NCBI RefSeq assembly: GCF_030384885.1
Contig: NZ_CP128613.1
Strand: one strand, 5' to 3'
Source: Escherichia coli
GTDB taxonomy: Bacteria > Pseudomonadota > Gammaproteobacteria > Enterobacterales > Enterobacteriaceae
DNA length: 64,000 bases
The notes under the pieces were generated by a model. The model was not told where the DNA came from, did not search any database, and saw nothing but the letters and a program-made list of their open reading frames with translations. Both the position numbers and the translations under genes were made by a program. Of this stretch, positions 28,200 through 29,672 are shown piece by piece. Each line of letters starts with the position of its first letter. Within the stretch, counting starts at the first letter, position 1.

Positions 28200-28363
28200 G
28201 TTGTACCATATAACAAAGATGTCAACGGAGAAGTGCAGGCCGCAAACTGACTGATGATGAAAAAACGCGGCTGAATGCGGTACTCGACTACATCGACGCA
28301 GTGACAGCAGTTGATGCTGACGCTGCGCCTGATATCAACTGGCCCGCTCCCCCGGTTGCGTAG
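28200..28363 (+). pseudogene. fragment of an alternative tail fibre assembly (tfa') gene, C-terminal part only
   Basis: Plus-strand frame encodes ...[38 protein letters not shown], a typical Tfa C-terminus, without a 5' half; convergent with and overlapping the minus-strand tfa. Confidence 0.5.
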
Positions 28364-28739
28364 GCCACTCTATTTCGGGTGCCGCTGAGGTATCAACACG
28401 GTTCAGCAGTACCCTGTATTTTTTCCACGCCAGCAGTAACGCCTGTTCATCGTCTGTCACCATTTCCAAATCAACGGCATCCTGCAGCGGTGCTATTGCG
28501 TTATTTGCTACGGTCAGTAGTGCTGATTTCTGCAGCTCAGCCTCCGCAACTAACGCGTTGTGAGAGCGTTCTGGGGGAGGTGGCACGGTAAATACTCCGT
28601 CTGAATATGACCAACCGATGCCAGCATCGCCGTTTAACGGAACTAAATTACCAGCCTCTGGTTTCCATTCAGAAATTCCGTCCCAGATAATGACATTAAT
28701 AACAACGTTATTATCAACAACTGCATAGATATCATTCAT
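28335..28739 (-). CDS. phage tail fibre assembly protein (Tfa, 134 aa)
   Basis: C-terminal [25 protein letters not shown] motif typical of Tfa/U proteins; immediately downstream of the tail fibre gene. Confidence 0.8.
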
Positions 28740-29672
28740 TTACATGTACTCCCGAATTACCAGCACGCCATTAGCTCCGTGCCCGCCACGTCCTGACGTG
28801 TGTGAATAGCTATTATCGTATGCACCCCCGCCGCCGGAGCCAGAGCAAACTCCAGGATTACCGCTCAGTTGCCCAGCGCGGCCGCCGCCACCCCAATAGC
28901 TCGATGCCCCATTGCCTACTAATAGCGCCTGGCCCGCCTGTCCGTCTGAACCGTCTCCGCCTTGTTCAGTTTTATAACCGCCAGAGCCTGAGCCACCGCG
29001 CCCGCCAGCGGTATTTGTAGCGCCGCCCCATTGCCCACCCTGGCCGCCGAGCGCAGTTAATGTCATGAACGAACTATGACCGCCATTATTTCCAGACCCT
29101 GGCCCATTGGCACCACTACCACCGCTACCAATTGTCACTGTATAGGTCCCTGGCCCGGCATCGTTGTCTGTCGCATAAATAGTGGCAAAAACAGTACCTC
29201 CGGCTCCTCCGCCAGCCCCTGAAAATGTCTGATTTGCGTTCTCCGCGTTACATCCACCGCCACCGCCGCCCCCCGCAGTCAGAATAACGTCAATTCGTTT
29301 TACGTCAGCTGGCCACGTATATGAACCCGACGATGAAAAAACGACAGTTTTGCTGTAACGCCCCGAGCCATCTCCCAAACCAAGGTTTTCGAGAGCCGTT
29401 TTCACCGTGCCATCCGATTTGATATCACCAAACGGATTCTTGCGGCTTAACAGCAGCGCACGAAGCGCTGTAAGCAGCTGGTCATGCTGCCCCTTCTCCA
29501 GGCTGGCACCGGATGCCTCCACCACGCTGCAAAGCTCCTCCTGCAACATGTCAAAGTAGTCATCATCCAGATCGGTGGCAGGCGTGCCGGTCTGGGGGTT
29601 ACCACGGGTAAAACCGTTCTTACCCGCGCCGAACTTATCCTTCTGCGCGGTTTTCGTGTCTATACGATGCAT
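28740..29672 (-). CDS. phage tail fibre protein (Mu S / P2 H-like N-terminus, glycine-rich C-terminal domain, 310 aa)
   Basis: N-terminus ...[24 protein letters not shown]... typical of side tail fibre proteins; Gly-rich repeats in the C-terminal half. Confidence 0.8.
29371..29395. promoter_or_regulatory. hix/gix-like DNA invertase crossover site inside the tail fibre gene
   Basis: tctcccaaaccaaggttttcgagag: imperfect palindrome whose core AAACCAAGGTTTT is identical to the Hin hixL core; lies at the constant/variable junction (about codon 95) of the tail fibre ORF. Confidence 0.55.

Follow-up and report, generated by a model that had tools for sequence, protein, structure and literature searches.

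The prophage remnant at the lambda attachment site

Within the 64-kb stretch of Escherichia coli DNA that was analysed here, which was all of the genome in view and is referred to below as the window, an element of 6.96 kb (24952-31912) is bounded by two direct copies of GCTTTTTTATACTAA, the lambda att core (0.03 copies are expected in the window). Both cores are exact and lie on the minus strand, the left one (24952-24966) beside ybhB/bioA and the right one (31898-31912) beside ybhC, the pectinesterase-family gene that comes next after it; the locus between bioA-ybhB and ybhC is the classical lambda attachment site. The element is a deleted prophage remnant: the duplicated 15-bp core is accompanied by a lambda-type tyrosine integrase gene, truncated at its 5′ end, and the order of the remaining genes, with gtr genes beside att followed by convergent fibre genes and Mu-like baseplate genes, is that of an SfV/CPS-53-like prophage.

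The genes on the right side of the element are incomplete. Next to the fibre gene there is a minus-strand baseplate gene resembling ymfQ and Mu gp48 (29676-30152; Pfam Phage_Mu_Gp48), whose 5′ end is missing (the listed ORF spans 29676-30194) and whose product is 95% identical to residues 28-194 of e14 YmfQ. It is followed by an internal fragment of a Mu N-like DNA-circulation gene (30153-30796, minus strand; Pfam DNA_circ_N), which is collinear with positions 15005-15649 of a related prophage sequence (L001, from E. coli 2021CK-01784, see below) at 98%. Finally, the plus-strand integrase gene (30797-31824; Pfam Phage_integrase, E 3e-40) lacks roughly the first 14 codons, and its Arm-DNA-bind_1 domain aligns only from profile position 13. 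Two deletion junctions can thus be placed, one at 30152/30153, relative to L001, and the other at 30796/30797, where tail-gene homology ends.

The left side of the element is occupied by an O-antigen glucosylation module, all of it on the plus strand. It comprises gtrA (25310-25672; Pfam GtrA_DPMS_TM, E 2e-13), which codes for a bactoprenol-glucose flippase and is annotated in relatives as a GtrA family protein; gtrB (25669-26583; Pfam Glycos_transf_2, E 2e-30), which codes for a bactoprenol glucosyltransferase; and a gene in the gtrC position, equivalent to that of gtrV/yfdI (26585-28051). The 488-aa product of the latter has no Pfam match and is presumed to be the serotype-specific transferase.

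The fibre gene and its crossover site

The fibre gene, stf, is an intact minus-strand ORF (28740-29672; 310 aa) and is also intact in every relative examined. It is made up of a constant N-terminal part similar to e14 StfP (Sc; 29396-29672, minus strand) and a glycine-rich variable part (Sv; 28740-29369, minus strand), the latter matching Pfam Gly_rich_2 (E 1e-18, residues 114-307). Residues 1-99 of Stf, through the motif ALENLGLG, are nearly identical to e14 StfP, and the tblastn alignment between both proteins extends to residue 128 (80%). At the nucleotide level, Sc is 96-97% identical to its counterparts in SfV, SfI, SfII and SfIV, and this homology stops at 29371.

Both parts are joined at an orphan pix-type crossover site of the Din family (29370-29395, given on the plus strand). 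Its 26 bp are composed of an inner half (29370-29381), a central AA (29382-29383) and an outer half (29384-29395), and read ATCTCCCAAACC AA GGTTTTCGAGAG; the sequence is also written ATCTCCCAAACCAAGGTTTTCGAGAG. An earlier note on this DNA had pointed to an imperfect palindrome at 29371-29395, which is indeed found there, as tctcccaaaccaaggttttcgagag, and only once in the window (0 copies are expected at up to three mismatches). The same note had recognised the core of Hin hixL in it, and a 13-nt core, AAACCAAGGTTTT, is common to both sites. Nevertheless, hixL is not the closest known sequence. Comparison with a published table of Din-family sites (PMC3241671) shows that the 26-mer is identical to pixL at 25 of 26 positions, with the outermost base as the sole mismatch, and that identity is 20/26 to pixR, 19/26 to each of hixL, cixL and cixR, and 17/26 to gixL.

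A quantitative scan, which had been suggested as a check, leads to the same assignment. On a log-odds matrix derived from 13 Din sites in the literature, which themselves score 20.0-35.2 bits, the site reaches 30.5 bits (28.0 with both pix sites excluded), against 14.1 bits for the runner-up position in the window and a maximum of 20.2 bits in 100 shuffles of the window. As positive controls, the matrix recovers both inverted sites in each of e14 (35.4 and 32.5 bits), Mu (34.7 twice) and P1 (34.7 and 31.3); it also finds three sites in a P1-like plasmid (L010), and one each in CPS-53 and SfV. Additionally, the 25-mer is identical in two prophages of K-12, within stfP of e14 and within yfdL of CPS-53. 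The e14 sites work experimentally, as the P segment between them (1797 bp) is inverted by PinE as well as by PinQ (PMC12529663).

As the earlier note had proposed, the site lies where the constant and variable parts of the fibre meet, since homology to SfV, SfI, SfII, SfIV, e14 and CPS-53 ends there. Beyond it, four unrelated variable parts continue in the window and its relatives from an identical site, 14 amino acid letters long: the glycine-rich part of the window, that of SfV/CPS-53, that of e14 StfP and that of e14 StfE. The last of these was found in vB_EcoM-689R6 (L007), where it corresponds to the flipped orientation of the P segment; this record (L007, L026), a prophage prediction, is rearranged and also covers host genes, and was used for the fibre junction only. 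The variable part of the window has no similarity to those of e14, SfV and CPS-53. Among phage records, 12 are matched by megablast in the constant part only, not in Sv, and tblastn with the variable part against phages gives no match, a search in which the low-complexity filter probably masked the glycine-rich query. These junctions suggest that fibre cassettes were exchanged at the site itself. As the inner half-site is conserved between cassettes, however, the exchange point cannot be placed within the site.

The convergent tfa genes

Immediately downstream of stf, a complete tail-fibre assembly (chaperone) gene, tfa (28335-28739, minus strand), codes for a protein of 134 aa that matches Pfam Caudo_TAP (E 1.9e-32) and shares 44% identity with the C-terminal half of the U proteins of Mu and P1. 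This exact protein is listed in 608 blocks of a public collection. It converges with tfa′ (28235-28363, plus strand), a pseudogene that preserves the C-terminal 43 codons (129 nt) of a second tfa. The overlap of both genes, which the earlier note had described, measures 29 bp (28335-28363) and aligns base for base with those of e14 tfaP/tfaE, CPS-53 yfdK/tfaS and the P1-like plasmid.

The possibility that the plus-strand frame is fortuitous had been raised together with the original description, but tfa′ is a genuine tfa fragment. In a tblastn search of the whole window, it aligns with residues 156-200 of e14 TfaE at 67% identity (E 1.5e-8), and it shows 78% identity over 45 aa to the C-terminus of the full-length, 200-aa Tfa of the P1-like plasmid, where the gene sits in a complete segment consisting of a recombinase, pieces of an alternative variable part (Sv′), tfa′, a convergent tfa and the fibre gene. 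By contrast, identity to the resident minus-strand tfa is 44% over 36 residues. The fragment is also homologous to K-12 tfaS, and an identical stretch is labelled by PGAP as “tail fiber assembly protein, incomplete”.

The length of the fragment varies among relatives: 603 nt (full length) in e14, 303 nt in CPS-53, 129 nt in the window and 0 in SfV. When a full-length ancestor was looked for in E. coli, all of the close matches (at least 95% identity, 68 genomes) turned out to be the same truncated fragment, with a left limit at 28130-28137. The nearest full-length relative, at 75% nucleotide identity, is found in P1-like plasmids. An additional scrap of tfa′ in another frame (28159-28203) was considered and rejected, as its E value of 0.16 in a 500-nt target is not significant.

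The place of the missing half

Between tfa′ and the gtr module, there is a minus-strand remnant of the 3′ end of a P22-like tailspike gene (28060-28162). This stretch shares 93-95% identity with the 3′ end of a gene that codes for a right-handed beta-helix protein and, elsewhere in E. coli, is convergent with gtrC. It includes a terminator-like hairpin (28060-28078, minus strand) with a T-run and a stem of 8 pairs, of which 7 are GC. A 52-aa minus-strand ORF (28067-28225) had been considered as a YodE-like toxin gene and was discarded as debris of the tailspike 3′ end. At the same att site, E. coli JNE25-003 has a P22-like prophage with gtrA, gtrB, the same 1467-nt gene and then a complete, convergent tailspike gene. 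From this match it follows that the att-proximal gtr module carries a scrap of a podovirus tailspike gene and its terminator. In the window, this module is joined to a fibre module of the myovirus type inside the second tfa gene. We infer that the remaining part of tfa′, together with Sv′, the invertase and the second site, was lost through the acquisition of the gtr module.

According to the earlier note, the second crossover site, the alternative variable part and the invertase were absent, and none of them was found in the 64-kb window. The next best match to the Din matrix, at 14.1 bits, is at chance level, and no second, inverted site is present. This position (27840-27865, in the gtrC-position gene) was rejected as a partner, as its score is within the range of the shuffles, its orientation is direct and its central dinucleotide is GA instead of AA. 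It carries a 15-nt identity to the gix core. Searches by tblastn with PinE, Gin and Cin gave no match in the window at E ≤ 0.01, nor was a homologue of the recombinase of the P1-like plasmid found there at E ≤ 1. As for the enhancer, blastn with the P1 cin enhancer and with the first 150 nt of pinE and gin returned only chance matches of 11-18 nt. These chance matches of invertase and enhancer DNA lie far from the fibre locus. Finally, the last 43 codons of tfa′ are all that is left in the window of a second Sv and tfa cassette, the alternative Sv′ being absent.

Din invertases normally require an enhancer in cis and inverted sites near each other. With a single site and no invertase nearby, the segment is unable to invert locally and, consequently, the fibre exists in a single fixed form, in which Sc is followed by the glycine-rich Sv.

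Distribution of the arrangement in relatives

The region 24800-30153 is collinear with, and 99.6% identical to, a full-length prophage of about 45 kb that E. coli 2021CK-01784 carries at the same att site. This prophage (L001 and L011) has the same 129-nt tfa′ with the same gtr genes alongside, and, along its whole length, a single Din site and no Din invertase. Similarly, prophages at argW and K-12 CPS-53 have a truncated tfa′, one site and no invertase in the DNA examined, and the same arrangement, with a truncated tfa′, is found in all 10 distinct contexts listed for the exact Tfa protein. The alternative orientation was seen neither in these 10 contexts nor in any of the relatives examined, none of which has an invertase within the DNA examined.

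As full-length relatives show the same loss, it predates the present remnant. Their arrangement and the graded lengths of tfa′ show that one half of the switch had already been lost in the phage lineage. The loss is, accordingly, ancestral to the SfV/CPS-53-like prophage lineage and not local. The segment is frozen in one orientation, as the earlier note had proposed, but this did not come about by decay in the present genome.

The remnant as such is shared with a few draft assemblies (e.g., GCA_035824015.1, GCA_047893755.1 and GCA_904842275.1), and its two deletion junctions were found together in 0 of the 5,426 complete RefSeq E. coli genomes. A synthetic junction joining the glycine-rich Sv to pix and pinE is likewise found in 0 of 5,426 E. 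coli genomes, and no relative was found in which the glycine-rich Sv lies inside a complete invertible segment. As a working state was not observed for this cassette, the ancestral one has to be deduced from e14 and the P1-like plasmid.

Comparison with known invertible segments

The locus had been described as a remnant similar to the G segment of Mu, with the convergent U/U′ arrangement of Gin, Pin and Cin segments. The convergent tfa pair is that of half an invertible segment, and its geometry is the one found in e14 tfaP/tfaE and CPS-53 yfdK/tfaS, but the closest relative is the P segment of e14 and not G. As in Mu G and P1 C, there is a 26-bp Din site in the fibre gene and a convergent design of Sv plus U or tfa. 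Unlike in these systems, which are complete and active, the tfa genes overlap by 29 bp, whereas U and U′ of Mu and P1 are 28 nt apart; this difference and the lack of similarity to Mu S make the locus e14-P-like rather than Mu-G-like. In the comparison with Mu G, P1 C and e14 P that had been recommended, e14 is thus the best match and Mu and P1 are weaker, with site identities of 17-19/26.

The order of the e14 P segment is ymfQ-stfP-tfaP / tfaE-stfE-pixR-pinE. The window shares with it a site identical at 25 of 26 positions and located at the Sc/Sv junction, a nearly identical ymfQ and first 99 fibre residues, the convergence of the tfa genes with a 29-bp overlap, and a tfa′ of the TfaE type. 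By contrast, the window lacks an stfE-type variable part, pixR and pinE; its Gly_rich_2 Sv and the accompanying tfa are different cassettes, and gtrABC is found at the position of the e14 distal half and pin-mcrA.

In CPS-53 (KpLE1), tfaS-yfdK-yfdL lie beside yfdGHI, and the likeness extends to the gtrABC-type genes, the 29-bp overlap between tfa′ and tfa, the identical 25-nt site within the fibre gene and the absence of the invertase. However, CPS-53 is at argW with IntS, while the element of the window is at att-lambda. Additionally, the CPS-53 tfa′ is longer (303 vs 129 nt), its variable part is of the SfV type, the K-12 fibre gene is 5′-truncated and no tailspike remnant was identified there. 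The SfV, SfI, SfII and SfIV group also has lambdoid genomes with Mu-like baseplate genes, arranged in the same order of a gp48-like gene, a short fibre gene (with the same constant part and site), tfa and att-side gtr genes; SfV differs in having no tfa′ remnant and in its variable part, int and att site. Finally, the segment of the P1-like plasmid, which is of the p15B Min type, contains the closest full-length homologue of tfa′ and the 29-bp overlap but, unlike the window, is complete: three of its sites are positive on the matrix, and a recombinase gene is present.

Origin of the locus and alternative explanations

Taken together, we consider the locus very probably to be the proximal half of an invertible tail-fibre segment of the e14 P type (Din family) in an SfV/CPS-53-like prophage remnant. 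Direct observations are that the site is of the pix type and forms a module boundary, that tfa′ is homologous to other tfa genes, that neither a partner site nor an invertase is present and that the arrangement is distributed throughout the lineage; the ancestor would have been a working invertible segment, whose distal half was probably replaced by the gtr module. In a complete system of this kind, the 26-bp crossover site divides the fibre gene, and a Pin-type serine invertase, together with Fis and an enhancer inside the invertase gene, recombines this site with an inverted partner, so that inversion swaps Sv-tfa for the convergent alternative, tfa′-Sv′. Of such a system, the locus keeps only Sc, the crossover site, Sv, tfa and the C-terminal 43 codons of tfa′; the remainder of tfa′, Sv′, the second site and the invertase, including its enhancer, are gone. 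The place of this lost half is occupied by the att-proximal O-antigen glucosylation module gtrABC, together with the tailspike 3′ end and its terminator. Two later deletions (30152/30153 and 30796/30797) removed most of the phage genes and truncated int.

It could be argued that the orphan site is still a live substrate, which the Pin invertase of another prophage in the genome would join to a distant pix-type site, for instance one of those of e14, leading to a large inversion of the chromosome or to the exchange of fibre cassettes among prophages. The site differs from the functional pixL at its outermost base only, and in the K-12 orientation it would be inverted relative to e14 pixR. Furthermore, PinQ and PinE act in trans on e14 (PMC12529663), and a prophage of EC958 with a truncated invertase still inverts (PMC4134206). 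Nevertheless, inversions have been reported in e14 only, and not in CPS-53, which carries an identical orphan site (PMC12529663). In the window itself, there is neither a partner site nor an invertase within 64 kb; nearby inverted sites and a cis enhancer are the normal requirement of Din systems. The products of such events are not apparent either, as the junction of the glycine-rich Sv with pix and pinE is absent from all 5,426 complete E. coli genomes and the 10 listed contexts of the exact Tfa all share one arrangement. We therefore regard a live site as improbable.

Even less probable is that the palindrome is mere coding sequence for ALENLGLG and that tfa′ is unrelated debris of illegitimate recombination, in a lineage that never had an invertible segment. 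It is true that the site lies in a coding region that is 96-97% conserved, so that its conservation alone is uninformative, and that SfV has the site but no tfa′ remnant. However, the same sequence is used experimentally as a crossover site in e14, and the homology among relatives breaks precisely at it, with four different cassettes beyond. Coincidence would also have to account for a 29-bp overlap that aligns base by base with the centre of e14 P and with that of a complete P1-like segment, for the graded lengths of tfa′ (603, 303, 129 and 0 nt) and for the fact that this fragment is nearer to TfaE-type proteins (67-78%) than to the resident tfa (44%, 36 residues).

Loss in this genome alone, by the same deletions that cut the prophage to 7 kb, is the least credible origin and is already refuted: at least two internal deletions did occur in the element, but both (30152/30153 and 30796/30797) are on the opposite side of the fibre genes, the full-length prophage that is 99.6% identical over 24800-30153 has the same 129-nt tfa′ beside gtr, and argW prophages share the arrangement.

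Significance

The proximal half of an e14 P-type segment, as we read the locus, is an arrangement already known and annotated: K-12 has it as tfaS, yfdK and yfdL, and many other genomes have it as well. It represents what is left of a known system, with no evident switch function. It is conceivable, albeit with little probability, that orphan, base-perfect pix sites in the fibre genes of prophages lacking an invertase act as docking points for Pin-type invertases of co-resident prophages (e.g., PinE and PinQ), through which fibre cassettes would be moved between prophages or the chromosome inverted between them, and that the intact stf-tfa pair is retained because of some benefit to the host, for example a block of adsorption like the one reportedly described for e14 StfE2.

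The weight of these observations is mostly in annotation, and it would be greater only if orphan sites prove to be used in trans. For instance, the “incomplete tail fiber assembly protein” called in many E. coli genomes is left over from the second half of a switch of the e14 type, and the calls split between a “StfP pseudogene” and a “glycine-rich protein” correspond to one intact fibre gene. Additionally, the locus provides an example of fibre cassettes joined at a Din site, and of a gtr module for O-antigen modification, found also in a podovirus prophage, that occupies the place of the distal half of the switch.

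The joint between the gtr genes and the tail-fibre module

Between gtrC and the tfa' fragment (28235-28363, plus strand) lies a scrap of about 100 bp, on the minus strand at 28060-28162, left over from a tailspike (beta-helix) gene of P22-like type: it corresponds to that gene's 3′ end and includes its terminator hairpin (28060-28078). In E. coli JNE25-003, where these gtr genes also occupy this att site, the tailspike gene that follows them is whole. The scrap marks a mosaic joint between a podovirus-type and a myovirus-type module. In relatives carrying other gtrC-type genes, the match to the window has its left limit at 28130-28137 or at 28093, that is, within or just past the tailspike scrap, and these limits suggest that gtr cassettes have been swapped repeatedly at this spot. 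Nearby, SIQLAQLKRQASAQL (28159-28203, frame 1) bears a weak likeness to residues 149-163 of TfaE, the e14 tail-fibre assembly protein, in a frame different from that of the main tfa' fragment. This stretch may be another remnant of the missing part of tfa', but the match is not significant (E 0.16 for a 500-nt target).

Crossover sites and the fibre gene

Inside gtrC, TTGATGTAAACCGAGGTTTGAATATA (27840-27865, plus strand) has 15 contiguous bases in common with the Mu gix core and is also found in L001, a relative with a full-length prophage at the same att site. Its matrix score of 14.1 bits, inside the shuffle range, its central GA and its direct orientation relative to the pix-type site led us to judge it a chance resemblance and reject it as a partner site. 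The P1-like plasmid pEc-050-T20-ESBL_3 (L010, 4613-7001) carries Din-type sites at three positions, scoring 35.8, 28.1 and 25.1 bits. Together with two short pieces of alternative fibre sequence and a gene for a recombinase, these indicate a multiple-inversion segment resembling p15B Min; a second, frameshifted recombinase fragment adjoins it.

The equivalents of the uninterrupted 310-aa fibre ORF (28740-29672) in L001 (9841-10773) and in L003, another relative (6652-7584), are cut in two by PGAP, which calls one part a "glycine-rich domain-containing protein" and the other a pseudogene, "incomplete StfP". Since none of the relatives examined has a stop codon inside this ORF, the split is an annotation artefact.

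The integrase

The longest int ORF (30667-31824) is an in-frame fusion, in which codons 1-43 run antisense across the fragment of the DNA-circulation gene, and lambda-type Int sequence begins at 30796/30797; the arm-binding domain aligns to its Pfam profile from position 13 onward only. The integrase is probably non-functional, and the remnant, as a consequence, probably unable to excise.
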